Shown here one piece after another: positions 3,183 to 25,387 of a stretch of 64,000 nt of DNA. Position 1 is the stretch's first letter, and every line of letters begins with the position of its first letter. The translations under genes and the position numbers were made by a program. Source of the stretch: an uncultured Verrucomicrobiae bacterium (GTDB lineage Bacteria; Verrucomicrobiota; Verrucomicrobiia; Chthoniobacterales; JAFAMB01). Below the pieces are notes generated by a model. It was not told the DNA's origin. It saw only the letters and a program-made list of their open reading frames with translations, and did not search any database. The stretch covers positions 4,192 to 68,191 of the forward strand of contig CAWBKA010000020.1 in NCBI GenBank assembly GCA_963789065.1. The letters are read 5' to 3'.

Positions 3183-4103
3183 GACAGAATGCGGAGTGGG
3201 CGAAAAAAACCGCAATCGCCGGCACCAACGGCCGAGCAACGACTGGGTTTTGTCCGACGCGTAGAAGAAATCGAGGACGAGAACAAGGATGACGACGAGG
3301 ACGATATTTAGGAACGATTGTCGAGGAACGAGAGCGGTCCGTTTGGGGCGATGTTCAAAGGTGGCGTAGAGAAATCTCAAAAGCTTCCGGAACTCTACGA
3401 AGCAGTTGCCAAGAAGGATGGGCCGGGCAGAATATTTGAACGCTGGATCTGTCGTCTCAACCGACGGCGTCGACGGTTTACATCTCACGGCCGAATCCGA
3501 AAAAAACTCGGAGCCGCGTCCTACGTACGGCAGTGTAGCGCCAAAGGGAGATCATCGATGTGGTGTGTCGCGCCCCGGGAGGGTGGCCTGGGCCGGAATT
3601 GCACCAAAATTGCGTCAGAGCCGATTTAATTGATCGTCATGTCCCTGGTAGAGCAGAGGCCGTGCGCGGCGGTGCAATTACCTAAGTATCGCAGAGGAGT
3701 CAGCCGGAATCCCGTCTGGTGGCCTTTAACGAATGCCGCCGAAGTTCTGCACATGATCGGCGCCGGACCAATGCCATGCGATTCCTCATGAACACTCTCC
3801 TCGCACACCCAATACCGCTCTTGATGCATGCGTCCCGGCAAAACCTCTGGATTGCGCTCGCTCCAGAAAACTCATTGCCACAGATGGAGCAGGTGCGTTG
3901 AGGCTCCGTGCTAATGGGCCTAACCGCCCTTCAGTCGCTATCTGAGCCGAAAACAACACCAAGGCACTCCTGATAAAAAGTGCCGCTTTAATTCTGCGGA
4001 TTTTCTGAAACTCGGGCTTTCTCCTGCCTTTGTAAGTTGACGAAGCCCGACTGCTTGAGCAGCGAGCCGCCCGCGCAGCCAAAATCGACAACCGGAATTT
4101 AGG

Positions 4104-7293: not shown

Positions 7294-7347
7294 GCCAGAT
7301 TTGCGAGACTGAATTTTCGATCGTTTCCCGCGCTTTTAAGACGTGGA

Positions 7348-7686
7348 TGTCGCGATGCCCTTTATTAGTGGAATTTGCATTCGCGACCCTGAAAATTGCT
7401 CTTAATTAATGCGTGGAGTTCAACATTTTTGCTGCCCTTAATTAATGGAATTTGTTGCTGTTTATCTGTGAGCTCTGCGCGCACAAAAATGGCCACTTGA
7501 GACGGTAGAGCGGCATGAAAATCGGATTTCGCCCGCTACAGAGCGTCAACAAAACGGCGTGACACTCTGTCCACCGATTAAGGGCCGCATTCCACAGATA
7601 AACGACGGCACCCCGTTGCCCTTTATCCGTGGACTCTCCTCGAGAGACAGAAGCCTGGGATTCCACTAATAAAGGGCATCACGACA
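7348..7686. repeat. palindromic, MITE-like element or motif array: about 27-bp terminal inverted repeats enclosing 8 copies of a GCCCTT(T/A)AT..GTGGAAT-like motif
   Basis: gatgccctttattagtggaat at 7354-7374 equals the reverse complement of 7660-7680 (21/21). The arms extend to tgtcgNgatgccc... Further motif copies start near 7399, 7431, 7455 and 7617 on the plus strand, and near 7574 and 7590 on the minus strand. There is no ORF inside. Confidence 0.75.
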
Positions 7687-7834
7687 GTGTGATTTGGAAA
7701 ATTATTTTGTGTGAATCTTTGGGCGATATTTTGCGCAGTCGTTGCCACCGCCCTAATTCAGCGTTTGCGATACCGGGTTGGACCAAAGCACCCCTAAGCC
7801 GGTCAGGAGCGCGAGCTAGTTCCTACTCGATCGT

Positions 7835-8077
7835 TCAACCCCCCATCATTTCCGCAGCGCGCTCCAAGTCTTTCCAAAATCCTCCGCGGCACGGCGTCAG
7901 TTCGGAAATCTCTTGGAACCCATCCAAGGCGAGCTCTAGTTCATTGTGCTGAAGCCACTCATCAGACTCCTTCCGGAGTTTTACGACCTCTTCAGACGAA
8001 TCTTGGACAACGTGCCGCGCCCGATGCAGCAGCGTCGCGGTGGCTTTCCATTGCTTGATCAGTTCGGGCGATGGCAT
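7835..8077 (-). CDS. small immunity-like protein (resembles MafI-family polymorphic-toxin immunity proteins)
   Basis: The 80-aa product MPSPELIKQW..EWLQHNELELALDGFQEISE..GGFWKDLERAAEMMGG has the HNE(L/Y)xLAL(D/E) core and a C-terminal W..L...A..M pattern that I recall from MafI-type immunity proteins. No search was possible. Confidence 0.45.
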   Translation of the reverse strand: MPSPELIKQWKATATLLHRARHVVQDSSEEVVKLRKESDEWLQHNELELALDGFQEISELTPCRGGFWKDLERAAEMMGG

Positions 8078-8445
8078 GGGGTGCCTCAAGACAAACCTAT
8101 TGGTCGATGCTCTTAGAAAGAGCGCTCTGGAGGTCTGGACCAAAGCCGATCAGCCGATCTGCCGCTTTCCAGTCCCGATTGCGCACAACGCGACACGTTT
8201 CCAAACTTCGTCCTACAACCCCTTTATGACTGGCCAAAAGGGGACGCTTTTGCGTAGTCTCTAACGCCTCCGGACTGTCAGGCTTTGGACGGGGAAGAGG
8301 CTTGCCCGCTGCACGATGAGCTTCGCCCTGACATACTCTTACTCGATCTTCGGATGCCGAAAAAGATGGTCAGGAGGTTGCGTCCGAGCTGATGTCGCGA
8401 AAGCCGCAGCCCGAATTATCGTGCTGACCATCTCCGTCGTCTGCC

Positions 8446-11400
8446 TTGATTGAGCTTTCAACATATGTCTTTAAGACGCTCAGGGAGGGTGGTGAGTTCG
8501 TCCTTTCTCGGGGCCGAAGGAAAGGCGACGGATCCCGTCTCCTTGTACTAGAGTCTGTTTCGGAACATCCATCCGTTCGGAGCCTGAAGGAATTGGAACA
8601 CGAGTACTCCATCAGAGAGGAACTCGATACCGATTGGGCGGCCCAACCGATCGCGCTTCAACGCCGCGACGGTCGGACGATGCTATTGCTCGAAGATCCT
8701 GGCGGCGAGCCTCTCAACAGCCGCCTCGGCCGACCATTGGAATTGATAGAGTTCTTGCGCTTGGCCATCGCCATCGCAGGCGCCCTCGGGAAGCTCCACG
8801 CGGCGGGTCTCATTCACAAGAAAATCGAACCGGCAAACATTCTGACTGAGGCTGCGACCGGCCAAGTCTGGCTGACGGGATTTGGCATCTGCTTGGCGTC
8901 GCATTCGCCCCGCCAGCGCCAGGTCCCGGAGCCACTGGACGTGATCGCTGGGACGTTTCCCTACATGGCCCCCGAACAGACGGGCCGTATGAATCGGTCA
9001 ATCGATTCGCGGAGTGATCTTTATGCCTATGGCGTTACGCTCTACGAGATGCTGACAGGAGTGCTCCCGTTCGAGGCGACCGACCCCATGGAGTGGGTGC
9101 ATTGCCACATCGCGAGGCAGCCGATTCCGCCCGCGGAGCGGCTGAAAGGGATCCCCGAGCCGGTCTCGGCAATTATCATGAAGCTTCTGGCCAAGAACGC
9201 CGAGGAAAGGTATCAAACCGCCGCGGGGGTGGAGGCTGACTTCCGGAAATGCCTTGCAGAATGGGAGTCGCTTGGACGGATCCAACCGTTCCTGCTGGGC
9301 TCACCGCGACCTGTCGGATCGCCTCCTGATCCCGGAGAAGCTTTACGGACGGGAACCGGAGATTGAAGCCTTGCTTGCGTCCTTCGACCGTGTGGTGGGC
9401 CACGGCAGAACGGAGCTAGTGCTCGTGCACGGCTATTCCGGTATCGGCAAGTCGTCGGTTGTGAACGAGTTGCACAAGGTGCTGGTGCCGACGGGCGGCC
9501 TCTTTGCCGCCAGCAAATTCGATCGGTACAAGCGCGACATTCCGTACGCAACTCTAGCCCAGGCCCTCCAGACGCTCGTTCGCCAGATCCTTGCCGAGAG
9601 CGAAACGGATTTGCAGCGATGGCGAGGCGCCTTGCAGGAACCACTAGGCCGCAACGGTCAGTTAATGGTTAACCTCATTCCTGAGCTCGAGTTCATCATT
9701 GGCAAACAGCCGCCCGTTGCCGAGCTTGCGCCTCAGGACGCACAGAACCGTTTCCAGACGGTGTTCCGGCGGTTTCTGGGCGCGTTCGCTCGACCGGAAC
9801 ACCCGCTGGCGTTGTTCCTCGACGATTTGCAGTGGATGGACGCGGCTACCCTTGAACTGCTCGAGCACTTGATCATCGAATCGCAGGTGCGGTATCTCCT
9901 GCTGGTCGGCGCCTATCGGGACAACGAGGTCGGCCCCGGGCATCCGCTGATGCGAACCTTGGATCGGATCCGTAAGGCCGGAGCGAGTGTGCAGGGAATG
10001 ATGCTTGCGCCTCTTGGGCTCGACGATGTGGGCCGATTGGTGACGCGACTCCCTGCATTGCGAGCAGGATTCCGCCAGGCCACTGGCAGAACTGGTGCAC
10101 GAGAAGACTGGGGGCAATCCGTTCTTCGCAATCCAGTTCTTGACGGCATTGGCCGAGGAGAGGCTGCTCGTCTTCGACCCAGGCGCTGTGGTCTGGAGGT
10201 GGGATCTGGCAGGCATCCGCGCCAGGGGCTATACCGACAACGTGGTGGATCTCATGGCGGGGAAGCTGAGCCGTTTGCCCGACACGACGCAGGAAGCCTT
10301 AGGAAAACTTGCCTGTCTGGGGAACGTGGCCGAGATCGCTACCCTGGCCCTGGTTCAAGGGGAGTCGGAGGAGCAGATCCACGCGGCTCTTTGGGAGGCT
10401 GTTCGGACGGGACTCGTCTTCCGGCTGGATAACATCTACACGTTCCTCCACGACCGCGTGCAGGAGGCGGCCTATGCGCTCATGGCTGAAAGCGAGCGGG
10501 CGGCGGTCCACCTCAGGATCGGCAGATTGTTCGTGTCACGGACGGCGCCTGAGGAAATTGAGGAGAAGATCTTCGAGATCGTCAATCAGCTCAATCGCGG
10601 TACCGAGTTGATCCATTCGCTCGAGGAGCGAGAGCAGGTCGCCGAGCTCAATCTCATAGCCGGCAAGCGGGCCAAGAGTTCGACCGCTTATGCCTCGGCG
10701 CTGACCTATTTTGTCGCCGGCCGCGCGTTGCTGGCAGAGGAGAGTTGGGCGCAGCGGTACACGCTCACATTTACATTTGAGGTCCATCGGGCGGAGTGCG
10801 AGTTCCTGACCGGCGATTTCCCAACGGCGGAAGAACGGCTGTTGATGCTGTCGCGCCGCTCCGAGGATCTGGCTAACAGTGCCATCGTCGCGCGCCTGCA
10901 AACGGAACTTTACACCGCTCTGGATCAGAGTGAGCGCGCTGTCGCGGTGGGCCTCGAATACCTCCGGCGCGCAGGCGTCGAATGGTCGCCGCACCCAACG
11001 AACGACGAGGTGCGACGGGAATACGAGCGGATCTGGCAACAGCTCGGAAATCGGCCAATCGAGGCGCTCATCGACTTGCCCCCAATGACGGACCCGGCCT
11101 GGGGGGCAACTCTCGACGTTCTCACGGCGGTCGAGGAGCCCGCCCATTATACCAACAAGAATCTGCAGAGCCTCATCATCGCGCGTATCGTGAACCTCAG
11201 CCTGGAGCGCGGCAACAGCGACGGGTCATGCGTGGCCTACGTCCAACTAGGCAGGCTTGTGGTATCGCGTTTCGGCGACTACCAGACCGGGTTCCGCTTC
11301 GGCAAGCTCGGCCTCGATCTCGTGGAAAAACGCGGGCTAGAGCGTTTCAGGACTCGAGTCTCCCTGCGCTTCGGTTACTTTGTGAATCCTTGGTCAAAGC

Positions 11401-14400
11401 ACTTCCGCACGAGCGTCGAATTGTTGCGACGTTCCTTCGCCACGGCGCAGGAAGCCGGCGACCTCCAGTACGCCGCCTATTGCTGCGACCGTTTGGTCAC
11501 GCTTCTTCTCGCCGCCGGAGCTCCGCTGGGCGACGTCCAACGGGAGGCCGAGAACGGGTTACAGTTCGCGCGAAAGGTCAAGTTTGGTTACATCGTCGAC
11601 ATCGTCATCGGACAGCTCAGGTTTATTCGGGCTCTTCTGGGCCAGACCTCGAGCTTGTCCTCCTTCAGCGATGCGGAGTTCGATGAGGGCAGGTTCGAGC
11701 AGTACCTGGAAGCCAATCCGGACCCGGTCTTTGCTGGGTGCTGGTATTGGATCCGCAAGCTGCAGGCACACTTTTACGCCGGCGAGTACGCGTCCGCCCT
11801 GGCGGCGGCATCCAAGGCTGAGCCGCTCTTGCAGACGGGGCCAGGACATTTTGAGTCACCCGAATACCTTTTCTATGACGCGCTCGCGCGGGCAGCACAG
11901 TACAACTCTGCGTCGTCCGAGGAGAAGGCCCGGTATCGCGAGACCCTCGCTGCCCATTGCCAGCAACTCGAAGTATTGGCGGAGAATTGCCCCGAGAATT
12001 TCGGGAACCGCGCGGCTTTGGTCGCTGCCGAGATTGCCAGGATCGAAGGCCGCGAACTGGACGCCGAGACGCCTTTACGAAAGGGCTATTCGATCAGCCC
12101 GGGAACACGGCTTCGTCCAGAACGAAGCCACCGCGCAGGAAGTCGCTGCGCGGTTCTACTCCGCACGCGGTTTGGAGACGATCGCGGAAGCCTATCTGCA
12201 AAATGCTCGGCACTTGTATATCCGCTGGGGTGCACTCGGCAAAGTGAAACAACTCGAGCAGCGTTATCCCGGCTTGCACGAAAAGCCCCCATTGCCAGAC
12301 CGTACGTCCACTTGGCTCGCCTTTAGAGCAAATTGACGTCCTCGCGCTGGCGAAGGCCTCGCAAGCCGTTTCCAGTGAACTTGACCTTGATAAACTGATC
12401 GAGACGCTCTTATTAATCGCGCTGGAGAACGCCGGGGCCCAACGCGGGGTTCTCATTCTTCTTCGGGGAGACGAGTCGCAAATTGAAGCCGAAGCAATCA
12501 CCGGTCACCATGCGGCTACGGTCACTTTCCACCGAGCGTTTCCGACGACCGTAGAACTGCCCGAATCGATCCTCCGCTACGTCATCCGAACCCAGGAGAG
12601 CATTCTATTGGACGATGCTTCAGCTCCGAACCAGTTCTCCGAGGACGAATATGTCCAAAGGAAGCAGGCCCGATCTATTCTTTGTCTGCCGCTGGTCAAG
12701 CAGGCCAACCTGAAAGGTGCGCTGTATCTGGAGAACAACCTGGCCTCCCATGTCTTCACGCCGAACCGTATATTGGTGTTAAGACTATTGGTTTCCCAGG
12801 CTTCGATCTCTCTGGACCATGCACGATTGTATGCTGATCTGACGCAAGAAAACAACGATCGAAGGAGGGCGGAAGAAGCCCTGCGTGCCAGTGAGGAGCG
12901 CCTGCAGGATATTGTCGACAACACCTCAGCGGTCATTTCTGTGAAGGATCTCGACCTCCGTTACCTTTTGGTTAACCGCGAATATGAGCGTCGCCATCGT
13001 GTTCGACGCGACCAAATCCGCGGCAAAACCGACTTCGATATTCTTCCCCATGATGTCGCCGAAGCGGTTCGTGACAATGATCGACAAGTGATCGAAGCCG
13101 GCGTGCCGATCCAGTTCGAGGAAACCGTGCCCTCGGATGGGGGCGAACATTTGTACGTCTCGGCAAAATTTCTGCTGCGCGACCACACGGGGAAACCCTA
13201 TGCGGTCTGTGGTATCGCGACGGACATCACGGCGTTGAAACGCGCGGAGGAAATGCAAGCGGCCCTGGCCCGCGAGCGGGAGTTGTTCGCGCAGCAGCGC
13301 GCCACCCAGTTGGCAAAAGCGAACGAGGCTCTTCGCGGATGTCTCAATGCACTCGCCTCTGTGCCCGAACTTGATGAGTTTCTTGGGCAAGTGATGGCTG
13401 TGATCACCCGGCAGTTGGGTGCTGTCTCTTCCACCCTGCGAATGCTTAACCTCGAGCAAAACACCTTGACTCTGGAGCTCGTCTTTCAAGACGGTCAAGT
13501 CATGTCGCCTGCCGAAGCGAGCTATCCAGAATCCTTGCGACCCCTGTCGCTTGACGAACAAGGGGCCGCCACTTTTCTGGATCAGCCAACGACTGTCATC
13601 CATATTCTCAATCCGAATTCGCCAATCACTGAAACCCAGCGCTCCTATCTGCTTGGACTGGGTATAAAGACCTTATTGATCATTCCTTTGAGCTCGGGGA
13701 GGCAAATCAACGGCCGGTTAGGCTTTCGTTTCAACGAGGAGCGCAATTTTGACCCGGAAGAACTCGAAATCGCGAGAGCCCTGGCAACCCAAGCCAGCTT
13801 GGCCATTGAGCTCACCCGGTTAGCGAAAACCGCCAGGCAAACTGCCGTGCTCGCAGAGCGAAATGAACTGGCCGGCGAAATTCATGATTCGCTCGCGCAG
13901 AGTTTTGTTGGAATTTCCATGCATCTGGACGTCGCCGAGGTCGCTACTTCGAAGGCCAAGGGCCTCCACCACATCCACAGAGCAAACGAGCTCGCTCAAT
14001 TTGGTCTGGCGGAAGCGCGACGCTCGGTGCTCAGCTTGCGATCTGGCATTCAACCGGGAGGACTGGTCAAGGCCGTTCAACAGCTCGTTGAACGTTCGAA
14101 CGTGCCTGGTATCTTGCGTTGCGAGTTGCGATCGGAGGATGTCCCTGACGAAAGCATACCCCCTGAGGTCCAGCATGAACTTATACGAATCTGTCAGGAA
14201 ACGATTAGCAATGCGGTTCGTCATGCCAAGCCGACTGTCATCACTACCACCTTGCGTTGGAACACCCCGAACCTAATCCTCCAAGTCACAGACAATGGAT
14301 CCGGGACGACCAGGAATCGTCTCGAACAAAGCGAAGGCTTTGGAATGACAAATATGCGTGCACGGGTCGCGAAGCTCGGAGGAAAGCTGCAAATCGAGAC

Positions 14401-14452
14401 CGGCGCGGGGTGTGGCACCAGCATCATTGTCACCCTGCAAATCGGTTCATAA
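8446..14452 (+). pseudogene. giant multidomain sensor: Ser/Thr-kinase-like, AAA/NTPase, TPR-like, GAF-PAS-GAF and HisKA_3/HATPase domains. One gene split over four reading frames.
   Basis: ORFs 8446..9366 (kinase fold, YMAPEQTGRMNRSID), 9254..10432 (ELVLVHGYSGIGKSSVV Walker A), 10095..12326 (HEKTGGNPFFAIQFL) and 12608..14452 (GAF/PAS, HDSLAQ H-box, HATPase) join into one protein. The join requires removing single extra bases at about 9298, 10046 and 12069, plus one further shift at about 12270-12320. Confidence 0.85.
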
Positions 14453-14464
14453 CATGTTCTCGAG

Positions 14465-15109
14465 ATGAAAACATCCTCAAAAGCGGCTGGAAAGGTCATC
14501 CGGATTCTCGTGGCCGACGATCACCCGGTCGTACGTGAAGGTTTGGCGAGTATTCTGAAAGCCAAGGATATCAAAGTAATCGGTGAAGCGGGCGATGGAG
14601 AGGAAGCATGTCGGCTTTACGATCAACTCTCCCCGGATATCCTCGTCCTCGACCTTCGGATGCCCAAGAAAGACGGACTACAAGTTGTGACTGAACTGAT
14701 GTCGCGGACACCGAAACCACGCATCATTGTCATGACGACCTACGAGGGAGAAGAGGATGTCCGTCGTGCGCTGAGGGCTGGAGCGAAGGGATACGTGTTG
14801 AAGGGGACGAAACGAGACCGGATTCTGGAAACTGTCCGAAAAGTGTACGAAGGACAGCCTTCGTTGTCGGCTGAAGTCGCCGCGAAACTCGCTGATTCTC
14901 TGACGCACCCAGAGCTCTCGGAGCGCGAACTTCAGATTCTGAAGTACATGGCTACCGGTAAGAGCAACAAAGAGATTGCCCAAGTTATTTACGTCAGTGA
15001 GAACACCGTGAAAGCTCACGTTAAATCGATCCTCGCGAAGATGGACGCCATGGGAAGAACCGCGGCCATCGCAATTGCGATCAAACGTGGGCTAATTGAG
15101 GCTCCCTGA
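14465..15109 (+). CDS. NarL/FixJ-type response regulator (REC domain plus LuxR-type HTH)
   Basis: IRILVADDHPVVREG..DILVLDLRMPKKDG..ELSERELQILKYMATGKSNKEIAQVIYVSENTVKAHVKSIL. It lies immediately downstream of the HisKA_3 kinase. Confidence 0.9.
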   Translation: MKTSSKAAGKVIRILVADDHPVVREGLASILKAKDIKVIGEAGDGEEACRLYDQLSPDILVLDLRMPKKDGLQVVTELMSRTPKPRIIVMTTYEGEEDVRRALRAGAKGYVLKGTKRDRILETVRKVYEGQPSLSAEVAAKLADSLTHPELSERELQILKYMATGKSNKEIAQVIYVSENTVKAHVKSILAKMDAMGRTAAIAIAIKRGLIEAP

Positions 15110-15132
15110 TCTCATGGCGGTGGACGTTTTAT

Positions 15133-15199
15133 CCTTTAGAGTAGCTGAGGCCTCCCATTAGGGTAGCCACAAAATGCTCGTTTAGGCAATGGCAGCGGC
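15133..15199. repeat. left arm of a 66-67 bp inverted repeat (contains aggcaATGGCAGCGGC reading inward)
   Basis: cctttagagtagctgaggcctcccattagggtagccacaaaatgctcgtttaggcaatggcagcggc. It differs from the reverse complement of 16139-16204 by one substitution and one 1-nt indel. Confidence 0.9.
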
Positions 15200-15903
15200 A
15201 TCTAGCTATGAGTAGAGTGAATCATGAATACAACTTTGAGCATTGATGCCGCCAGAACTCACGACTCACAGTCTTCTAATTTTAAAACAACAAAGAGTCT
15301 TGACGCGCCTTTTATAGATGAACCACTTCTCAAGTTATCCTCGTTGCCCACTTCTCAGGAGAGAGTCGAGCGTAGACTTGAAACTGAAGAATGGCCAATC
15401 GGATGGGAAGGTGATTACTGCATCTAAATCCGACCCGTTGTACCACGCTTTTGAAAACCCAACAGGCCGCTTAACCAATCGTTTCAAGAAGGATACGTCC
15501 CTTCCCGATACACAACTTTTGACAATATCTCTTCCGAGTTCTGGAATATTCCGAGTTGTCGATCCGTGTTACATTTATTAGGAGCGCTGACAAATTCAGG
15601 AGCATGGAGCTGGTCTGCTCGGAATATTCCGCTCTACCGATTTGATCCCGACGGTAGAACTGTCGGATGATCGAACGTTACTTTTCACAGGCGAAAGTGC
15701 TTATTTCGTCTGTGATCAGGCTCAGTTGGATGCCGTATCTGCCGCGCTTCGTGAGCGCTCTGGAGCTATATTCGTGGAGCGGACAGTTTGTGCCGCTGGC
15801 TCGACGGTCAAGGTTTCTTTCCGGCGCTTCTGCTGTGGCACGAACTCTCAACCGACCTCTCGGCCATTGCAGTGTAGTTCCCCTCTAACTCCAATCGAAC
15901 CTT

Positions 15904-16149
15904 CTACCGCCCGTCGGGGTTGGCTTCTTTCCATAACTGGGCTGCGACTTCACCAACGTCCCCGTTGGCCGACAGTGCGGCGGTAATGTCGGGCGCGCCG
16001 CCAGCGTCATTGACAACCACGTTGAACACCTGCCACTCGGCGTCGGACATCGCGAGTTGAGCCACATCGACCTTTGCGGCAGTGAGAAAATCCTTGAGCA
16101 AGGCGAAGCCGGCGTTGTCGTCTGCACTCTTGGCGTGGGCCGCTGCCAT
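15904..16149 (-). CDS. 81-aa hypothetical protein whose start codon and leader lie inside the right inverted-repeat arm
   Basis: MAAAHAKSADDNAGFALLKDFLTAAKVDVAQLAMSDAEWQVF.. has strongly GC-biased third positions, typical of real coding DNA here. I recognised no family. Confidence 0.5.
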   Translation of the reverse strand: MAAAHAKSADDNAGFALLKDFLTAAKVDVAQLAMSDAEWQVFNVVVNDAGGAPDITAALSANGDVGEVAAQLWKEANPDGR

Positions 16150-16204
16150 TGCCTAAACGAGCATTTTTGGCTACCCTAATGGGAGGTCTCAGCTACTCTA
16201 AAGG
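16139..16204. repeat. right arm of the 66-67 bp inverted repeat
   Basis: gccgctgccattgcctaaacgagcatttttggctaccctaatgggaggtctcagctactctaaagg, aligned by eye to the left arm. Confidence 0.9.
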
Positions 16205-16431
16205 GTAATCCGCCACTTACCTCACGTGGCTTTAAGGATGCTACTGTCACGCTGCACGAAATTGGGAGACTTGGAGAATAACGAGTGTTTGTTGCACTTA
16301 AAGGGACTCAGCACAGGAACTGTATTTAATTAGGAGACCCGCATCCCCGTTCGCATTAGAACCGTGAAGCCCGGCAGGGTGTCCCTTGGAGGCCTGGGAG
16401 CCAGCAAGTGCGCGCATCTTCAAGGCCGAAT

Positions 16432-17625
16432 TCATCCTCCAGTGCCCTCCCTGGAGCCCGTGCCGCCTGATAAGCGTATCCACACGTACACGTCTAGGAT
16501 GAATTTGACTTCCAAGACCGTGAGACGCTGGCCGGGCCGTATAATTCCGGTAGACTTTTGATTAACCCAGTTGGAATTAATGAACTGAATAGGACCTTTC
16601 CTTATGGTGACTGTGCCCGTCGCGATAACTATATCACCAACATCGGGCGTAGAAACTGGATCCCTTGTCTGATCCTTAAAGAAGACTTCGTCCCATCCGT
16701 TCCCGTTTCTCCTGCCGAAATATGCCCAATCCCCAGGCGTCGATGGCGCTTGCGGCGGTTCTGGCAGCGGTGTTTGTTCTGGCGATTGAGATGGCTGTGG
16801 CAGCGGTGTTTGTTGTGGTGTGGCCACCTCTGATGTTATCTGCTTCGGCTCCGGATGCCGGGAGCGGAGGTAGTTAGCGGTACCCACGGCTAGGCCAATG
16901 GCAAGCGCCAGCAACGTCATTATTCCAACCACTGGCAGCAGCTTTCTTTTGGCAGGGGACGTCAACGGCGCAAGGCCTGGAGGCGGCGACTGTGGTTCGG
17001 TCTCCTGTCGCTCCTGTTCTTTCTTCCGCAGTCGCTCGGCCTCTAAACGCTCCGTCGCCTCGCTTTCACGGTGTTCGGCCTCCTGTCGCTCTTTCTCTTC
17101 GCGCTCACGACGCTCCGCATCCAGCCGGTTCTTCTCGCGCTCTTGCTCTTTAGCCGCTGCTTCCTCCAAAACCTGCCTTATTGTAGCAATTAACCGCTGG
17201 CAATCTCCGTCGAAGCTCGTATCGCTAATTTGTAATGCATTTCGGCGAACCAATGGCTTCAAGTCATCAGGAAGCTCAGTCGCAAAAGGCATCAAAGCGC
17301 CATCCACAAGAACAGGGATCACACGAATATCACGACTGAGCGCGGTCGCGATCTCCATGCGCACGAAGTCCCCAGGGTTGTCGAGCCGACGAACTCCTTG
17401 GCGATCTTTGGACGTGAGCCAATTAGCTCCAATCACGGCGATAAGCACGTCGCATTTCGCAACCGTTGTTTCGATGGCTTTAACAAAGTCCTCGCCTAAT
17501 GCGATTGCTTCGATATCCATGAAAATCTGATTCCGATCAAAATGCATGGAAAGGCGGTCGTGCAGGCTTCTGGCTGACCACCGGCTTTCCTCCCGACGAT
17601 AGCTAATGAAGATTTGCCCGCTCAT
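16432..17625 (-). CDS. TIR-domain membrane protein: N-terminal TIR, E/R-rich coiled coil, one TM helix, P/Q-rich linker, C-terminal SH3b-like domain
   Basis: MSGQIFISYRREESRWSARSLHDRL..DIEAIALGEDF..CDVLIAVIG..RVIPVLVDG is a TIR_2-type signature. REREEKERQEAEHRESEATERLEAERLRKKEQERQ is the coiled coil. LLPVVGIMTLLALAIGLAVG is the TM helix. The C-terminal VIATGTVTIRKGP..IIRPGQRLTVLEV..VWIRL is SH3b-like. Confidence 0.8.
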   Translation of the reverse strand: MSGQIFISYRREESRWSARSLHDRLSMHFDRNQIFMDIEAIALGEDFVKAIETTVAKCDVLIAVIGANWLTSKDRQGVRRLDNPGDFVRMEIATALSRDIRVIPVLVDGALMPFATELPDDLKPLVRRNALQISDTSFDGDCQRLIATIRQVLEEAAAKEQEREKNRLDAERREREEKERQEAEHRESEATERLEAERLRKKEQERQETEPQSPPPGLAPLTSPAKRKLLPVVGIMTLLALAIGLAVGTANYLRSRHPEPKQITSEVATPQQTPLPQPSQSPEQTPLPEPPQAPSTPGDWAYFGRRNGNGWDEVFFKDQTRDPVSTPDVGDIVIATGTVTIRKGPIQFINSNWVNQKSTGIIRPGQRLTVLEVKFILDVYVWIRLSGGTGSREGTGG

Positions 17626-17647
17626 TTTTGCTGTGGATTGGCTGCGA

Positions 17648-17848
17648 TCAATATCGAATCCTCTCCTTCTGACTGCGGCAGTCGTAGAGTTTCGTAGTGC
17701 GGCAATCGGCGTGGCCAGCGATTCGGCTGAGCGGCTTCAAGGGTACCGTCATTTTCCAGAAAATTCGTGATACCGGTGACCCGGAATGAGTGAGGCGAGT
17801 AGGGCCCGCATGCTGCGGGGCGGACGTTGGGATAAGTCGATGGGAGCG
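17648..17848 (-). pseudogene. C-terminal stub of a tyrosine recombinase/integrase (HxxR box and catalytic-Tyr region), frameshifted and missing its N-terminal part
   Basis: My own minus-strand translation gives ..YSPHSFRVTGITNFLENDGTLEAAQ, a +1 shift, then RIAGHADCRTTKLYDCRSQKE.. This matches the H-x-x-R ... (L/I)xGH....TT..Y box II pattern of tyrosine recombinases. It is open only from a TGA at 17849-17851, has no start codon, and ends 22 nt before the TIR start. Confidence 0.6.
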
Positions 17849-17884
17849 CTCATGGCATTGGGGTTCTTGGCATGAATTGAATCG

Positions 17885-19077
17885 TTATCTGCCTCGATTC
17901 CAGCCCCGCCCATTATCGCCGAAGCTCACGCAACCCTCTTCGGTTACCGCAATGGTATCCTCGAGCTTGATGAAGCCGCGCCCAGGATGGGCCATGGTGG
18001 TCTCCACAGAGATAACCATATCGGTCTCAAGCGGACGTTCCGCATCATAGCCCTCATACCCCTCAGCCCCATTGTTCGTCAGACGAGGCGCTTCATGGGT
18101 GACGAGGCCCATGCCATGCGCCATGAAACTCAAATAGGCCGCGTGGGGCGAGCCGCCTACAAGCTCGTTGGCCGTTGCGAAAATCTCGGCTCCCGTGGCG
18201 CCGCGGCGGACTGCATTGCGCGCCCGCCGCTGAATCTCTTCGATCACCCCAAGAAGATCAATGAGTTCGGCATCCGGCTCGCCCAGAATTCCCATCCGAC
18301 ACAAATCGCCGATATAACCCTTATATCTAGCCCCAGAATCAAGCGAAAGGATATCGCCGGCTTCGAGGCGCTGGTCGGAGGGGGCTCGGTTGAGACTGCT
18401 GCCGGCGGTGATCAAGCAGTAATTGAAGCTCAAATCCCGCCCTACCTCCTCTCTGCGCAGCCGGTCGACCAGCTCATTTTTCGTCTGGCCTGGCGCGCAT
18501 CGCTCGAACACGGCCAGCATTGAGGCCACAACGCGCTCGGAGGCCTCGCGCAGGTGCGCGAGTTCGGTTCTTGTTTTTCGTGCGCGCAGCCGCTCCAACG
18601 GAAAATAGGCGTCGACGATCTGGCTATCGCCGAGCCTTTCCTGCAGCAACCTGGCACCGTCCCAGGGTAGAAAGGAAGCTTCCACACCGACCCTTCGGAT
18701 CGGCCCGGGCAGACCCTTGATATACTCGACGGTTCACTCGATTGCGCCGGTGCTGTTGCTGGCGGCGGTCGAGAAGACCGGAGGCCAGAACTTGCCGAGC
18801 TGCTTCTCATAGTTTTCCATCAGGTGTCCGATATAGGCCGTGTTGTCCGGGCGACCCCTCTGATAGACGACGACCGGCAGATAGCGGCTCACCCCGACCG
18901 CATCCGTGTACTCGAAGAAGAAAAAACGATAGCCGCCAAGCAGATACTCCACGTTGTGCTTGGACGTCGCGACGAGACGTCGATGCCCTCCTCTTCCAGC
19001 AGGGCGTCGAGTCGCGCCGTGTCGAAGGGTGCGTGCTTTACCTGATCATATCGAGCTTCGTTCATGTCGTCTCTCAT
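17885..19077 (-). pseudogene. M24-family metallopeptidase (Xaa-Pro peptidase/creatinase-like) with one frameshift and one in-frame TGA
   Basis: ORFs 18889..19077, 18734..18952 and 17885..18685 join into one protein. A 1-nt deletion near 18975 breaks ..EEGIDV|LVATSKHNVEYLLGG. The TGA at 18734-18736 is in frame with the downstream 266-aa catalytic part (..GYIGDLCRMG..HGMGL..). Confidence 0.8.
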
Positions 19078-19137
19078 GGTGGGGGTTGCTTAAACTTTAC
19101 ACTCCGGAGGAGTACAGGTCAGGCAGAAAACGTGGTT

Positions 19138-19494
19138 TCATTTCTCCAGATCCGGAATCTTCGCACCAGCTCTAGCCTTGATCCTGGCAAAGGTCGCCGC
19201 GAGGATTTCGGCAGTCAGGTTATCGGCTTCTTCTGCCAGGATGGGTTTCGAATAGGGATTAGAGACCATCAGGCGTTCATTGTGAACAACTGGTGAGCGG
19301 TCCACGGGAAAATGGAATTGAATTACCGTTTCAAAGTCAAATGACGTAACGGCCCCTCCCTGAGCGCCAAAAGCCATGGACGAGCTACGAGAAGTCTCCG
19401 GCTGGGGAGGCGGAATTCGCCCTCCAGGCAAGGATCGAATCGGCGTGGCGGCAATGGGCATCGCCTGCCTGAATCCTGATACCCAAGCGCTCAA
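19138..19494 (-). CDS. hypothetical protein (start uncertain; an internal ATG at 19377 is also possible)
   Basis: An ORF just upstream of, and co-oriented with, the M24 gene. I recognised no family. Confidence 0.35.
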   Translation of the reverse strand: MSAWVSGFRQAMPIAATPIRSLPGGRIPPPQPETSRSSSMAFGAQGGAVTSFDFETVIQFHFPVDRSPVVHNERLMVSNPYSKPILAEEADNLTAEILAATFARIKARAGAKIPDLEK

Positions 19495-19589
19495 AAGTCC
19501 GATCTAATTGGCAATCGTCCTCAAATCCATAGTTAAGAACTTTTTATTTTTGTGTTGTTATATTTAAATAACAAATCTATATTAGTGTT

Positions 19590-20371
19590 GTGATGTGGCC
19601 TTTCTCTCTCAGTTATCCATTGCTCTGGGCGTTCATTTGTTCGCAGGCAATGGGACGACCAATTCCAGCAACTGTCTCAGAACTCGTGCAGCGAGCCGAT
19701 CCGCAAGCCAAGGTTGAATATTGCGGTAGCTTCTCCATAAATCAGGTTGACTATTACTCTTCGTCCTGGCCCGCAAGGAGTTGGTCGGAGTCGTACTGGT
19801 TCAGATCCGCTCGGAAAAGCGCCCGTGACGCCGATGCAGATACCTCTCTTTTCCCGTTTCGCGGCGATCCGCCACAGCCCGTGGCACGGCCGCTACAGGA
19901 GGCGATCGCAGAACTGCTCAGAAGACGCAACCTGAAGCAAAATGGAGAGGTCCGTCCAGGAACCTGCAATAATGGCCGGAGATCAGTGCGGTCGGACGCG
20001 GCATCGATCTTGTTGTATATCCGATCTCTGGTTTTCGATTCGACACAGATTCCACACGCGAAATCTTGCGACTTCTCCGGACGGGTCCCACGTTTTCGAT
20101 TGACCCCAAAAAGGCGCCACCGGGTTCGATCATCGTCAGCCCAACCCAGTTTTCGCACGATGGTCCGATCTTTCTGGGGCATGCGGGGATCCTCGGGTCA
20201 GACGGTTCAATCTATAGCGCGGACGCCAGGCACGGAGGTGCCTGGACCAAGAACTTCACTTTGTCCAATTGGCTGAAGCGATTTTCCGGAACCAACGGAA
20301 CCTACGCTTTTCGTTATCCGTGCGCGTTCCTCCGGGAACACTCGCGGGCTGGCGCCCAGTCCCTGAAGTAG
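19590..20371 (+). pseudogene. secreted NlpC/P60- or papain-like cell-wall hydrolase, frameshifted near 19970
   Basis: It has an N-terminal signal-like MMWPFSLSYPLLWAFICSQA, and ..GTCNN then shifts frame to WPEISAVGRGIDLVV... The C-terminal APPGSIIVSPTQFSHDGPIFLGHAGILGSDGSIYSA resembles the G-D-I-hydrophobic ... GH-hydrophobic-G-I pattern of these amidases. Confidence 0.55.
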
Positions 20372-20456
20372 CATGTATTTCTATGAGCGACGAGGGTTCG
20401 GCTCGCGGACTGGTAGAGCCCTGTTTTTCTCGCGTTTCTGTTTTTGCTCGGATGCG

Positions 20457-21117
20457 ATGACGAAGACACCTGGACTCCGGAATTCCGCCGGGATCTTTTC
20501 ACCAACGAAAAGCGACCTGGTGCAGAGCATGGCCATTGCCGCGCAGGCAGGCACCGGCGCAACAATTCTGCCGAGCGACTCCAACACTCCTGTTTCCAGC
20601 GATAACGACTTGAGCGTACTTGGCGGAGACGCCAACGAAAATCAGCAGGCTTTTCGGCAAAGGTTCGGCTTGAGCAACCCGACGCAAGAACAACTGGCGC
20701 GATGGTCAGAATATGATGCAAGACTCACCGCGTACTCAAACAAGGATGCCGATTGGCCATATCCGACCGCAGCTTCAGCGAATTGGATTGGAACGACCTC
20801 GACAAACGGCGACCCACTCGCCGTCGAAGGCACTACGGTGGCGGTTGACTTCAACCGAATCCCTCGCGGCTCACTCGTCTACATTCCTGCCTTGGACATG
20901 TATGCGGAAGCCAATGACACCGGGCTACGGCATGTGGTCACAAGCCGATGCCGGCCAGAGCGACTACGGCGCAAGCGGGGCCGGCAGGGTCGATGTTTAC
21001 AATCTGGCTGGAGACAGGTCGTCGAGCCAGGTCGAAAGGAACTTTCAGAGCCGGGTAGGAAACGATGAGTACGGGCAAATTTACGTGGTTTATAAAGGAC
21101 CTGGCTGGAAAAAGTGA
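20457..21117 (+). pseudogene. 3D-domain (MltA/RlpA-like) protein, frameshifted near 20920
   Basis: ..GTTVAVDFNRIPRGSLVYIPALDMYAEANDTG then shifts frame to YGMWSQADAGQSDYGASGAGRVDVYNL. This fits the 3D-domain pattern (AVD..iP.Gs.v.i....y.A.DtG....riDvy). Confidence 0.6.
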
Positions 21118-21216
21118 AGCGGCTAGCCTGCGATGAGCTCCGTTCGCTTCGTCTTTCGTGTGATTCTGGCGGGGAAAAATACTGAACCAAACGAAACATG
21201 TCATGAACACACTATT

Positions 21217-21800
21217 ATGAGAATGCTTATGGTCTGTTTGCTGGCAGTTTCTGCGCCAGCTCAGAATCCGCCGAAGTCGGGCAATCCATACATCTCGAGA
21301 GGGAACCCGAAAAGTCCAAACGGCAAATACGAGTGGATCGTTAGAACCGACTATCCGATCCGTTACGCGCTTATCGATATCGCTCAGCGGGAAAACGATC
21401 GCCAGCGTTAACGCATATTACCCGGACGTTTACGGCTTAAACATTCAATTCGCCCAAGCAATCGGAGTCTTCTGGAACCGGGACGGGACGGTTGTCGCGC
21501 TGGACGAGTTAAATCGGCGCCGGGCAGGGCGGCTCTATTTTTACCCTGCGAGACGGCGACGTTCGTGAAATGCCATCGGAGAGCATCCTTCCGATTGCGG
21601 CATCCGCAGACGAAGGTCGATTGGTGGTTGATCCAGGCTGGGTATCCCGGACGAAGATTCGGGTCCGGCTCGCCCTGCAGGCGAAAAGCGGCAACACGAC
21701 CAGCAGGTTCTATGATATTGATTTCAGCGATCCGGATCGTCCGACGGTCCGATCGACGCAATTGTCCGTACCATTCCACGCGCGTGGCCACGTTACGCGG
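21217..21800 (+). pseudogene. hypothetical secreted protein split over three frames
   Basis: MRMLMVCLLAVSAPAQNPPKSG.. (signal peptide) continues in other frames as ..VNAYYPDVYGLNIQFAQAIGVFWNRDGTVVALDELN.. and ..TLRDGDVREMPSESILPIAASADEGRLVVDPGW.. The end is uncertain because it runs into REP repeats. Confidence 0.35.
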
Positions 21801-21803
21801 CCA

Positions 21804-21898
21804 AACACCGACACGCCGATACGCCCAAACGGTCTTCTTTCGGCCTGCCACGCCGGACGCGCAGGAGCCCGTCCAGGAGCGCGTCCCTTCGCGCGGAC
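21804..21898. repeat. GC-rich REP-like element (family R1)
   Basis: acaccgacacgccgatacgcc ... tgccacgccggacgcgcaggagcccgtccaggagcgcgtcc. It shares both sub-motifs with the copies at 29.9, 30.1 and 47.3-47.5 kb. Confidence 0.75.
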
Positions 21899-22992
21899 TA
21901 AGGCTCGAGGGTGACCTTTACGGAAGTCAATCCGGAGATGACTAGATCGATCCCTTTCTGGAAATCGCTCAGCGGGAGACGATGCGTGACAATCTCGTCC
22001 ATCGGCAAGAGGCCCTGGCCGATCATGCGAATTGCCACGGGATAACATCGGGGGCCCAAATGGGACCCATGAATATTCAACTCTTTGGAATCGCCAATGA
22101 TGGTCCAGTCCACGGTCACTTTTTCGCGCATGACGCTAAACTCAACGAATGTCCCGAGTTTACGGATCATCTGCAGCCCCTGCTCCACGGCAGCTGGATG
22201 TCCCGTCGCTTCGATATAAACGTCGCAACCGTAGCCGTCGGTCAGAGCGAGAACTTTCTGGACCGCATCCTCCTTCCTTGGATTGATACCGAGATCAGCT
22301 CCCGAGCGCCTGGCCACTTCCAGCCGCTCATCACTCAGATCGAGCGCGATGATCCGCTCGGGACCTTTCATCTTAGCAGCGGCGACCATTCCCAACCCAA
22401 GCGGACCACAACCGGCAATCACCACAGTATCCTGGTACTTAATATCGCCCCGTTCGACCGCGTGGATCGAACATGCGAGCGGCTCGATGAAGACCGCATG
22501 ATGTAACGGAATTGATTTCGGCACTTTGTAGTTGAGCGCACCGGCCGGGAACACCATGTAGTCGGCCCACGATCCGAAAGTGCGCTGATGAAAGCCGTAG
22601 ATATCGTGGACGTTGCACATCCAATAGGAACCGCTTTTACAGTACCTGCAGTTCCAGCAAGGAACGATCTGTTCGCTGATGGCGCGGTCCCCGATCTCAA
22701 GGCCGTATAACTCGGCGGCGCCATCGCCCAGTCCTACGACTTCACCGATAAATTCATGACCAGGAGTTACTGGAGCCTGGCAGTAGCCTACCCGATGTTC
22801 GTCGCCCCAAAACATGGGGGCACCGGTATAACACTTTATATCGCTGGCACACACACCGGTGCTCTGAACCTTAATCAGGACTTCACCAGGACCGGGTCTG
22901 GGTACAGAACGCTCTTCGAATCGGTAGTCCCGCGGGCCATGCGCCACCACTGCCGGCATGGTTTTTGGTAGTTTGTCAACGATAGAACTCAT
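21898..22992 (-). CDS. zinc-dependent medium-chain alcohol/polyol dehydrogenase
   Basis: ..GEVLIKVQSTGVCASDIKCY..VTPGHEFIGEVV..IAGCGPLGLGMV.. covers the catalytic Zn ligands, the structural-Zn Cys cluster CWNCRYCKSG, and a GxGxxG motif. Confidence 0.85.
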   Translation of the reverse strand: MSSIVDKLPKTMPAVVAHGPRDYRFEERSVPRPGPGEVLIKVQSTGVCASDIKCYTGAPMFWGDEHRVGYCQAPVTPGHEFIGEVVGLGDGAAELYGLEIGDRAISEQIVPCWNCRYCKSGSYWMCNVHDIYGFHQRTFGSWADYMVFPAGALNYKVPKSIPLHHAVFIEPLACSIHAVERGDIKYQDTVVIAGCGPLGLGMVAAAKMKGPERIIALDLSDERLEVARRSGADLGINPRKEDAVQKVLALTDGYGCDVYIEATGHPAAVEQGLQMIRKLGTFVEFSVMREKVTVDWTIIGDSKELNIHGSHLGPRCYPVAIRMIGQGLLPMDEIVTHRLPLSDFQKGIDLVISGLTSVKVTLEP

Positions 22993-23171
22993 GGATTTGC
23001 GTTATGATTCGGGGGTTTTCTCAATAAACTTTCACTTTAGCCTCTTTTGGGGGATCGGCTGCTACTCAGCATCGACTCCTGTCCGCATTTGTAAATATTT
23101 TCATGGTGATAAAACCCATCCGAGCTATTGAAAACTCTCAGCAAAGAGCCTTCGTTGATCCGGGTTTCAAT

Positions 23172-23813
23172 ATGTTCAAAAGGACTGTGTGCATCGTTTC
23201 GTTAGTTTTTGCCGTTCTGGTTTTCCGAGCTTCGGGAGAACCGCCCATCCTGGACCCGATCGCCGACTATCTGGCAATGAACGTACCGGATCGGGCGACA
23301 AACGTGGGGCGTCTCCTGGTGATCAAGAAAGTGGCGATCGACATGGAAGGTACTGGCAAGGAGGACCTCTTTGTTGGGACCTGGTACCGAAATTCCGGGC
23401 CTAACACCTGGCTTTGGGTGGGGTACGCGCCAGTGGCTGGCGGCTATCAACGGATCACTGATTCGGATGTTTTGATCGACTTTGACGGCATTTACGTGGG
23501 CGAGCTCCCGGATATTGGTCGACCCGGAATGGCTCAAGCGTACAGCCTGGAACTGGATAACAAGGATCGGGACGAATCGAATATGATCAGCGACCTCACT
23601 TTTTATTACATCGAGGACGGAAGGTTGATGCAGCAGGGAACCGGAGCGCTCGACCGAGATGATCCAGAACAAGCGTCTAAATTCGACTATTACTTCGGAC
23701 CGAACCGGAAAACATCAGCAACGCCAAAAATCGAGTCGTTTACCGTTCCGGAACTGGTGCAGCGAGGTTACCGCCTGCCGGTTTGGGGATCGCTCAAGCC
23801 GTCCGGAAAATAA
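23172..23813 (+). CDS. hypothetical secreted protein
   Basis: The signal-like N-terminus is MFKRTVCIVSLVFAVLVFRASG. It is an intact ORF with no recognised family. Confidence 0.5.
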   Translation: MFKRTVCIVSLVFAVLVFRASGEPPILDPIADYLAMNVPDRATNVGRLLVIKKVAIDMEGTGKEDLFVGTWYRNSGPNTWLWVGYAPVAGGYQRITDSDVLIDFDGIYVGELPDIGRPGMAQAYSLELDNKDRDESNMISDLTFYYIEDGRLMQQGTGALDRDDPEQASKFDYYFGPNRKTSATPKIESFTVPELVQRGYRLPVWGSLKPSGK

Positions 23814-23931
23814 ACGAGTGCAGTTGTGGTTGCTGATTTACAAATCCCACGGGGTTTGACGTTTGTGAACTGAGGTATTACCCTCTTTCTGCGGGGTTTC
23901 AGCTCCCCGCGAAGAAGCAAAGCCAATACTC

Positions 23932-25387
23932 GTGGACGCCCGCATCCTCCAGGAATTCCGCGCCATCACCGGGGATCGCGGCCTGATCACATCGCAGGAC
24001 GAATTGAAAACCTACGAGTGTGACGGGCTGACGAATTTCCGGGTCGTTCCGCAGGCGGTGCTGCTGCCGCAATCCACGGAAGAGGTCCAGGCGGATCGTG
24101 CGCGTGTGCTTTCGAGAACGGATTCCGTTTGTGGCGCGCGGCTCGGGCACGGGATTGAGCGGGGGCGCCCTGCCGGTGAAAGACGGGGTGGTGATCAGCC
24201 TGGCCCGCATGAACCGTATCCTTGAAGTGGATCTGCCGAACGCACGGGTGGTGGTGGAGCCGGGCGTGATCAACCTGGAGGTGACCGGCCGGGTTGCCGC
24301 CCACGGCTTTTTCTACGCGCCGGATCCCTCCTCGCAGTCTATCTGCAGCATCGGCGGAAACGTGGCGGAAAACTCCGGCGGCGCGCACTGCCTGAAATAC
24401 GGATTTACCACTACGCATGTGCTTGGGCCTCGAGGTGGTGCTGCCAGACGGTTCACTGGCGCATCTCGGAGGAAAGACGCTCGATGCGCCAGGCTACGAT
24501 CTGGCGGGCGTGTTCGTGGGCTCGGAGGGCACGCTGGGCATCGCCACTAAAGTTATTCTCCGCATCGTGAAGCGGCCCGAATGCATTCAGACGCTGCTGG
24601 CGGCGTTTGCTTCCACCAGCGAAGCCGGGGCGGCGGTCAGCGAGATCATTGCCGCGGGCATGCTGCCGGCGGCAATTGAAATGATGGACAACCTGGCCAT
24701 CCAAGCCGCCGAAGCGGCGGTGCACGCCAACTATCCCGACTGCGGGGCGCTGTTACTGGTGGAGCTCGACGGCGCGGTAGGCGGAAGTAGAAGCAGCTGA
24801 TGCGCGCAGGTGGGCGAAATCTGTCGCGAGTGCGGCGCCGGGGAAATCCGCGTGGCACAGACGGAGGAGGAGCGCGCCGTGGTATGGAAGGGACGTAAGG
24901 CGGCGTTTGCCGCGATGGGACGCATTTCGCCGAATTATATCGTGCAGGACGGCGTGATCCCGCGCACGGCGCTGCCACGGGTGATGAGCGAAATCGAGCG
25001 GCTCGGCGCGGAGGCGGGAATCAGAGTGGCCAACGTGTTTCACGCCGGCGATGGCAATCTGCATCCGTTGGTTCTCTATGACCGCCGGATCGAAGGCCAG
25101 GAGCACGCCGCGGAGGACCTGGCCAACCGCATCCTGGAACTTTGCATCGAGGCTGGGCGGCTCGATCACGGGCGAGCACGGCGTGGGCGAAGAGAAGAAA
25201 ATGATGATGTCGAAAATGTTTGCGGAGCCCGACCTGGAAACGATGCAGCGAGTGCGCTGCGCGTTTGACCCGGAGCACCTTTCCAATCCCACGAAGATTT
25301 TCCCGCGGCCGCGGCTGTGCGGCGAAACGCCAGGGGAGTATCGGCCTCATCCGCTGGAAGATCGCCGGAATCGCGGAACGCTTCTAA
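23932..25387 (+). pseudogene. glcD: glycolate oxidase subunit GlcD (FAD-linked oxidase), multiple frame changes
   Basis: Fragments in three frames join up: VDARILQEFRAITGDRGLITSQDELKTYECD.., ..[18 protein letters not shown].., ..[28 protein letters not shown].., ..[14 protein letters not shown].., ..[13 protein letters not shown]... The true end, [12 protein letters not shown], is at 25385-25387. Confidence 0.85.

Follow-up and report, generated by a model that had tools for sequence, protein, structure and literature searches.

Integrase pseudogene remnants from decayed genomic islands and cryptic prophages are common. Recombinases also mark anti-phage defence islands, and in Bacteroidota defence genes were likewise recovered with tyrosine recombinases as baits (PMC13552941). 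Hotspots of prophages and satellites have similarly been described as sites of defence genes (10.1101/2021.01.21.427644). The locus analysed here lies in a 64,000-nt stretch of DNA (the window) from an uncultured Verrucomicrobiae bacterium and carries, directly upstream of an intact TIR gene, a stub that is an ordinary dead integrase fragment of known kind (Table 1). Taken as a whole, the stub is probably the dead 3′ relic of a Xer-like family that expanded and then decayed, with a full integrase once located about 20 nt before the TIR gene, both genes belonging to one mobile or island unit and the integrase eroding from its 5′ side.

Table 1. Features of the TIR locus, in window positions and ordered from left to right.
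Feature	Position	Strand	Basis
Inverted repeat, left arm, 71 nt	15129..15199	.	Repeat scan
Second recombinase relic, N-terminal SAM-like-domain piece, 'MIERYF..' family	15667..15852	plus	DNA matches in relatives
S13 (PBP4-type) D-Ala-D-Ala carboxypeptidase, internally deleted C-terminal fragment	15904..16149	minus	94–97% identical to intact C2 copy
Inverted repeat, right arm	16139..16208	.	Repeat scan
TIR gene, intact, 397 aa, with TIR_2 domain; relic directly upstream	16432..17625	minus	Profile match, paralogue comparison
Spacer, integrase stop to TIR start, 22 nt	17626..17647	minus	Spacing similar to G005:C338 (~20 nt)
3′ remnant of a Xer-like tyrosine integrase gene, ~55 codons	17648..17815	minus	HSFR, GH, Tyr, native TGA; profile and DNA/protein comparison
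Junction DNA between M24 gene and remnant, without integrase homology	17816..17884	minus	Alignments
M24 peptidase gene, directly upstream of the relic	17885..19077	minus	Orthologue comparison

The minus strand of the stub reads '..PAACGPYSPHSFRVTGITNFLENDGTLEAAQ' and, in the next frame one extra base on, 'RIAGHADCRTTKLYDCRSQKERIRY*'. The joined 66-aa peptide matched PF00589 (Phage_integrase) at profile positions 127–166 of 172 (E = 1.7e-5) with 25.1 bits, a score that for the stub alone falls just below the cut-off of 27.1 bits, and it matched the XerC, XerD and XerA models with E values from 3e-6 to 1e-4. Six-frame searches returned matches in 23 of 41 genomes (the window's own and 40 relatives, which are soil MAGs of the Verrucomicrobiota order Chthoniobacterales), and those in sister genomes reached 78–85% identity across ~50 residues (E down to 4.5e-24). 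At the DNA level, at least 10 loci were 82–88% identical over ~138 nt. The similarity of the stub to integrases is far beyond chance. The intact relatives are 311–404 aa long. For example, G010:C23 has 311 open codons, and G009:C26 encodes 324 aa from its first ATG within a 404-codon open frame. The intact relatives terminate in '...YSPHSFRATGITNFLENDGTLEAAQRIAGHADSRTTKLYDRRGQKVLLEDMERIRY*' and are ordinary two-domain tyrosine recombinases, with PF00589 (78.4 bits) and PF13495 domains and a match to the XerD model at E = 1.7e-35. Because the stub shares 78–85% identity with genes that score 78.4 bits, its descent from the PF00589 family can be regarded as secure. Thus, the original prediction of a C-terminal tyrosine recombinase remnant on the minus strand stands, with the peptides as they were read, the PF00589 and Xer matches, and the identity to intact integrases all in agreement.

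Alignment with intact copies places the start of DNA homology at ~17815, a few bases ahead of the YSPHSFR codons, and positions 17816–17848 ('ALPSTYPNVRPAAC') matched nothing. The remnant is therefore present but shorter than the 17648–17848 and ~67 codons first proposed, since homology covers just 17648 to ~17815, or ~55 codons. It retains the native stop (TGA, 17650–17648), the catalytic Tyr codon (17686–17684), HSFR (HxxR) and GH. The catalytic set is nonetheless incomplete: only HSFR, GH and Tyr remain, and the segment for Arg-I and Lys is missing. The window copy is the last sixth of the gene. Some 266 N-terminal codons are gone, and with them the SAM-like core-binding domain that intact relatives possess (PF13495). 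Furthermore, an 18-nt deletion at 17666/17667 takes out 'VLLEDM', two conserved residues are altered (YDRRGQ to YDCRSQ), and a single extra C is found at 17725/17726 (GCTCAG-C-CGAATC). Judged from its sequence, the relic cannot be active and encodes no enzyme, because the DNA-binding N-terminal domain and the first catalytic Arg and Lys have been lost.

The neighbouring M24 gene leaves no room for the missing codons, because homology to its orthologues reaches ~17873, fading ~12 nt beyond the stop. This stop (17885–17887) lies 37 nt above 17848, as predicted, and ~60–70 nt above the start of integrase homology. A search of the contig returned no N-terminal piece of the relic's integrase family. 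Hence, the absence of the N-terminal part had been read correctly, with ~266 codons missing and the M24 end immediately upstream, and so had the 22 nt between the stub's stop and the TIR start codon (ATG at 17625). The gene was also rightly called dead, given the lost codons, the 18 deleted nucleotides and a genome with no detected intact copy of the family.

One-base lesions in this contig need to be read with care. Both rpoB and rpoC of the same assembly are split between frames (contig C40:30602–38556, with breaks near 32100 in rpoB and near 38470–38488 in rpoC), and because these essential genes are also frame-broken, one-base shifts occur as errors in the assembly. The +1 shift first noticed in the stub is real in the contig, where it corresponds to the extra C, but for the same reason it is no evidence of decay. 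This extra base and a one-base deletion in the M24 gene near 18976 may be assembly artefacts, and the same may hold for many of the 'frameshifted genes' in the window. The general lesson is that apparent frameshifts in the window are no sign of gene decay without read support. Many of the relatives' genomes come from the Nanopore-only Microflora Danica catalogue (PMC12313526). The truncation of the integrase and its 18-nt deletion are a different kind of change from one-base errors, and the in-frame TGA in the M24 gene (18734–18736, where orthologues have CGG) is a substitution rather than an indel.

Could the organism carry a full integrase, with the contig mis-joined or mis-polished at this point? 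The indel errors in essential genes of the assembly invite this explanation, which we nevertheless consider very improbable. A loss of ~800 nt and an 18-nt deletion are no polishing errors, the M24 gene aligns with its orthologues up to and past its stop, and the genome holds no near-identical repeat that could have caused a mis-join (81% identity over 98 nt is the closest). Moreover, stubs cut just as short are found in many other assemblies, short-read ones included.

The stub belongs to an abundant family. A search of five sister genomes with a full-length integrase recovered ~19 near-full copies and ~57 fragments, mostly C-terminal, and the stub alone had 17 matches in G006 and 23 in G010. 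Many of the relatives' stubs are still open frames of 60–96 codons. Similarity among copies stops at the gene ends, with no conserved motif seen past the stop codon. Downstream of different copies lie highly diverse genes (transporters, regulators, sulfatase-like genes and porins), which begin from 7 to more than 600 nt away. These counts suggest that the integrase family multiplied and then mostly decayed in this soil Chthoniobacterales genus. The window stub is one more piece of this abundant integrase debris, and an ordinary one. The organism's own genome (G000) holds 17 PF00589 matches of other kinds. Its nearest members of the stub's family are decayed pieces on contig C4, and the best match (C4:82426–82803) is a 141-aa open frame with 47% identity. 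No intact paralogue able to act in trans was found in this genome, which is 73% complete, so that an intact copy could be unassembled.

We also considered whether the stubs share a mechanism of truncation. C-terminal fragments (~39) outnumber N-terminal or middle ones (~18), an excess explained by the easier detection of the conserved box II, and a 5′-truncating mechanism was rejected as its source. That the integrase gene has a hotspot for deletions, or an att core, at ~nt 798 is unproven, as the 5′ ends of ~40 stubs are scattered over aa 174–282. Four high-identity stubs (the window's, G006:C4, G018:C78 and one from a SMAG contig) start within ~15 nt of one another, in an interval that was picked after the fact. 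Diverged copies also 'begin' near nt 798 because a conserved block starts there. A split integrase, with attP within the gene, was rejected as well: the contig has no integrase head and the relatives' N-terminal fragments have no fixed end.

The link between stub and TIR gene, part of the original prediction, recurs in other genomes. At G005:C338, a longer piece of the same integrase (aa ~110–285, with an internal deletion) ends in 'ERIRY*', and ~20 nt later a gene from the window's TIR family starts with '(L)SGKIFVSYRREES'. Its counterpart in the window is the 22-nt spacer and the TIR start 'MSGQIFISYRREES'. The G005 locus retains ~175 more integrase codons than the window, and two independent JGI soil-metagenome contigs carry its arrangement. 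The genes upstream differ, being the M24 gene in the window and a BBE-type oxidase in G005. The integrase-TIR junction is thus a derived state shared by two species, and together with the longer piece in G005 it shows that the TIR gene was once directly preceded by a much fuller integrase. Upstream of the closest TIR homologue, at G010:C14 (84% nucleotide identity over the TIR domain), there are two co-oriented integrase stubs. The stub at G010:C14 is 77% identical to the window stub over 61 nt, compared with 86–88% for other copies, so the two loci are not necessarily simple orthologues.

The partner TIR gene in G005 is dead, with its ATG changed to CTG and its frame truncated after 83 codons. 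In the JGI contig L158 (Ga0210390_10025262, positions 2981–3718), the internal deletion brings the integrase into frame with the TIR start, so that integrase(aa ~110–285)::TIR(1–83) reads as one open fusion. The MAG copy (L144, G005:C338) and this contig differ by one base in the HSFR codons.

Across the genomes, TIR_2 genes follow integrase relics in the same orientation, at a distance of at most 1.5 kb, at 5 loci in 5 genomes (the window's included) against ~0.14 expected under uniform placement, a generous comparison since relics and TIR genes both cluster in variable islands. These TIR_2 genes span several different architectures. No intact integrase-TIR pair was present in 32 GTDB loci, none of ~8 intact integrase copies examined had a TIR gene within 3 kb, and a scan of JGI metagenomes for the junction pattern gave 2 hits, both G005-type relics and neither an intact pair.

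The linkage could also have a different origin, in which the TIR gene was never cargo. An element with an outward-reading terminal integrase would have inserted ~20 nt upstream of a resident TIR gene, and its body, possibly including the M24 gene, would later have been deleted. Consistent with this alternative, integrase homology ends exactly at the stop and the downstream genes are very diverse, intact integrase copies occur without a downstream TIR gene, and most TIR genes of the family lack an integrase and carry a conserved leader of their own. Nine other members of the family (four in the same genome) have no integrase tail, and several of the nine share another conserved leader, which is absent in the window copy. 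The M24 gene also behaves as mobile cargo would, with copies 91–93% identical between species and unrelated flanks. However, the flanks of copies that have diverged by 14–25% are unalignable anyway, which weakens the argument from homology ending at the stop. The same junction with an M24 gene upstream in one species and a BBE-type oxidase in the other is easier to account for if integrase and TIR moved together. Different TIR families downstream of relics in several genomes likewise argue against a resident gene. We view the insertion next to a resident TIR gene as a tentative and rather unlikely alternative. Because the same junction is found behind different upstream genes in two species, we lean slightly toward integrase and TIR having been a common unit rather than neighbours at an insertion site.

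A full integrase gene was once present immediately upstream of the TIR gene, its stop ~20 nt from the TIR start, and on the common-unit reading the two genes were probably parts of one mobile or island unit. Deletions would then have eaten into the integrase from its 5′ side until they reached the point where the neighbouring M24 gene ends, while the TIR gene would have been kept. The relic would now mark history only, or at most be passively transcribed as a TIR leader. The M24 gene itself may have arrived as a single gene: its sequence suggests recent transfer or mobility, as the gene is 91–93% identical at the nucleotide level between G010, G006 (two copies) and G005 (L039, L040, L041, L043), homology begins and ends at the gene ends, and the flanks are unrelated in every relative. 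The orthologues are intact, with open frames of 386–475 codons around the match.

Retention of the relic as a promoter, leader or small ORF for the TIR gene would also account for the tight spacing conserved in two species, for the absence of the native TIR leader, for the recurrence of relics upstream of TIR genes and for the many stubs in relatives that are still open. Several lines of evidence make such a role quite unlikely. No sigma-70-like promoter or terminator was found in 16200–18100, and the relic has suffered both a deletion and changes at conserved residues. The TIR partner in G005 is itself dead. Furthermore, similar stubs are found ahead of many unrelated genes, 7 to more than 600 nt away from them, and their 5′ ends vary.

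A conserved leader of ~70 nt (..CTAAAATC..CTGCTCTAG..CCCGGTAGC..AAAATG) precedes most members of the 'MSGQIFISYRREES' TIR family and could be a regulatory element. Leader-bearing paralogues were seen in G000 (C26 and C36), G010 (C14) and G001 (C11 and C31). TIR_2 domains are unusually numerous in the genus, with 19 matches in G000, 28 in G010 and 22 in G006, and the window TIR is one of at least 8 paralogues of its own family in its genome. A near-invariant N-terminal TIR domain is combined with varied C-terminal parts, such as the Sel1 repeats in G010:C14, and other TIR families have TPR or LRR/Roc-COR neighbours. In G001:C11 (L094, positions 6583–15800), a homologue (55–74% amino acid identity) of the window's large kinase-AAA-GAF sensor gene is followed, after ~1.1 kb and in the same orientation, by a TIR paralogue, whereas sensor and TIR are convergent in the window. 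The two may form a functional sensor-TIR pair.

The borders of a mobile element were harder to trace. No tRNA gene was found in 10000–24000 and no Rfam match in 14500–19500, and a repeat scan of 14900–18100 gave only short, chance-level direct repeats as att candidates. No functional integrase is present at an element border, where the only candidates are the two relics of Table 1. Synteny around the M24 gene is absent in relatives whether or not an element is present, and the M24 flanks, which differ in every relative, give no basis for defining an empty site. G010 has its best counterparts of the kinase-regulator pair, of the TIR gene and of the M24 gene on three separate contigs. With neither an att repeat nor a tRNA target, the proposed borders of an integrated element at 15.1–17.9 kb are not supported.

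The evidence does support a block rich in wreckage between 15.1 and 17.9 kb. Here, between the response-regulator gene and the TIR gene, the arms of an inverted repeat bracket the S13 peptidase fragment and a second tyrosine recombinase relic (15667–15852), the latter newly noted. This second relic ('MIERYFSQAKVL..', with two SAM-like domains) is unrelated to the stub's family and has matches of 76–82% nucleotide identity in G006:C7, G010:C22 and G009:C526. In relatives, its 'MIERYF..' family includes intact members, which have open frames of 404–417 codons and occur in clusters of several recombinase genes (e.g., G009:C339). Between the right arm and the TIR stop, ~100 nt (16245–16343) are 82–84% identical to two G006:C7 sites, with neither an ORF nor a tRNA or Rfam match. 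On contig C4 of the same genome (93688–94930), the stub's integrase family has left another decayed tail, ~840 nt from a further S13-peptidase fragment.

The original prediction had named the stub as the only candidate enzyme for the inverted repeats. This claim falls, as the cassette itself contains the second relic and PF00589 has 17 matches in the genome, and the present-day stub is refuted in that role by the loss of most of the enzyme. A broader possibility is that the stub or its parent acts on the 71-nt repeats (15129–15199 and 16139–16208) as an invertible switch. The stub is near the repeats, and at the C4 locus the integrase stub and S13 fragment have a relative orientation opposite to that of the window's pair, as a single past inversion would produce, and are not separated by a TIR gene. 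Yet such a flip of the cassette fits without the need of a dedicated enzyme, for near-identical arms of 71 nt can be inverted by ordinary homologous recombination. The recombinase relic inside the cassette is a different one, and the interior holds gene fragments only. Recombinase-driven switches (Fim-type, invertons, shufflons) are a poor match to a locus with no intact recombinase beside the repeats, where both recombinase genes are fragments and the arms bracket gene wreckage. We therefore give the switch practically no credence.

A more ambitious reading of the junction is that integrase and TIR form a directional two-gene module in Chthoniobacterales, with the integrase stop and the TIR start within ~20 nt, either as a minimal mobile defence unit or through an integrase that targets TIR leaders. 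We hold this to be doubtful. If it were true, integrase tails before TIR or other immune-type genes would be footprints of a process and no random debris. The relic as such is an annotation point, to be recorded as a pseudogene fragment instead of intergenic DNA, and carries little weight alone. It also serves as a historical marker of a TIR gene that was once directly behind an integrase.

Comparison with described recombinase systems sets the locus apart from two of them. Integrases that span their own attachment site resemble it in that the integrated state gives a tail followed by co-oriented cargo. They belong, however, to another enzyme class, the contig holds no matching head, and the 5′ ends of the stubs (aa 174–282) are not fixed. 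Integrons also place a tyrosine recombinase beside variable one-gene neighbours, and the stub weakly matches integron-integrase models (E = 0.0047 and 0.15). Its score (16.3 bits) and that of the intact relative (47.1 bits) compare with a cut-off of 265. In contrast to integrons, where attI lies upstream of the integrase, the variable gene here follows the integrase 3′ end, with no conserved sequence past the stop and a spacing to the next gene of 7 to more than 600 nt. The repeat scan of 14900–18100 showed no attC-like repeats.

The closest likeness in domain build is to the Xer-like simple tyrosine recombinases (PF00589 with PF13495 or PF02899), as the intact relatives have the same two domains and the stub keeps HxxR, GH and Tyr. 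XerC and XerD differ in that the intact relative scores far below their equivalog cut-offs (122.8 versus 329.6 bits) and that the stub's family is multi-copy and scattered rather than a single housekeeping pair. In its state of decay, the locus resembles the integrase pseudogenes of decayed islands and cryptic prophages, which are truncated integrases by accessory genes, among gene fragments, with function lost. It differs from them in having no visible tRNA or att scar and in a 3′ remnant that abuts the downstream gene at 22 nt. No known multi-gene defence system was identified at the locus. Like recombinase-marked defence islands, it has a recombinase gene beside an immune-type gene. Unlike in those islands, the recombinases next to TIR genes have been reduced to relics, the host belongs to the Verrucomicrobiota and the TIR gene is of a putative single-gene immune type. 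Integrase relics could thus be cheap signposts to TIR-type immune genes in a poorly studied soil lineage, a use in line with published recombinases as markers of defence genes (PMC13552941).
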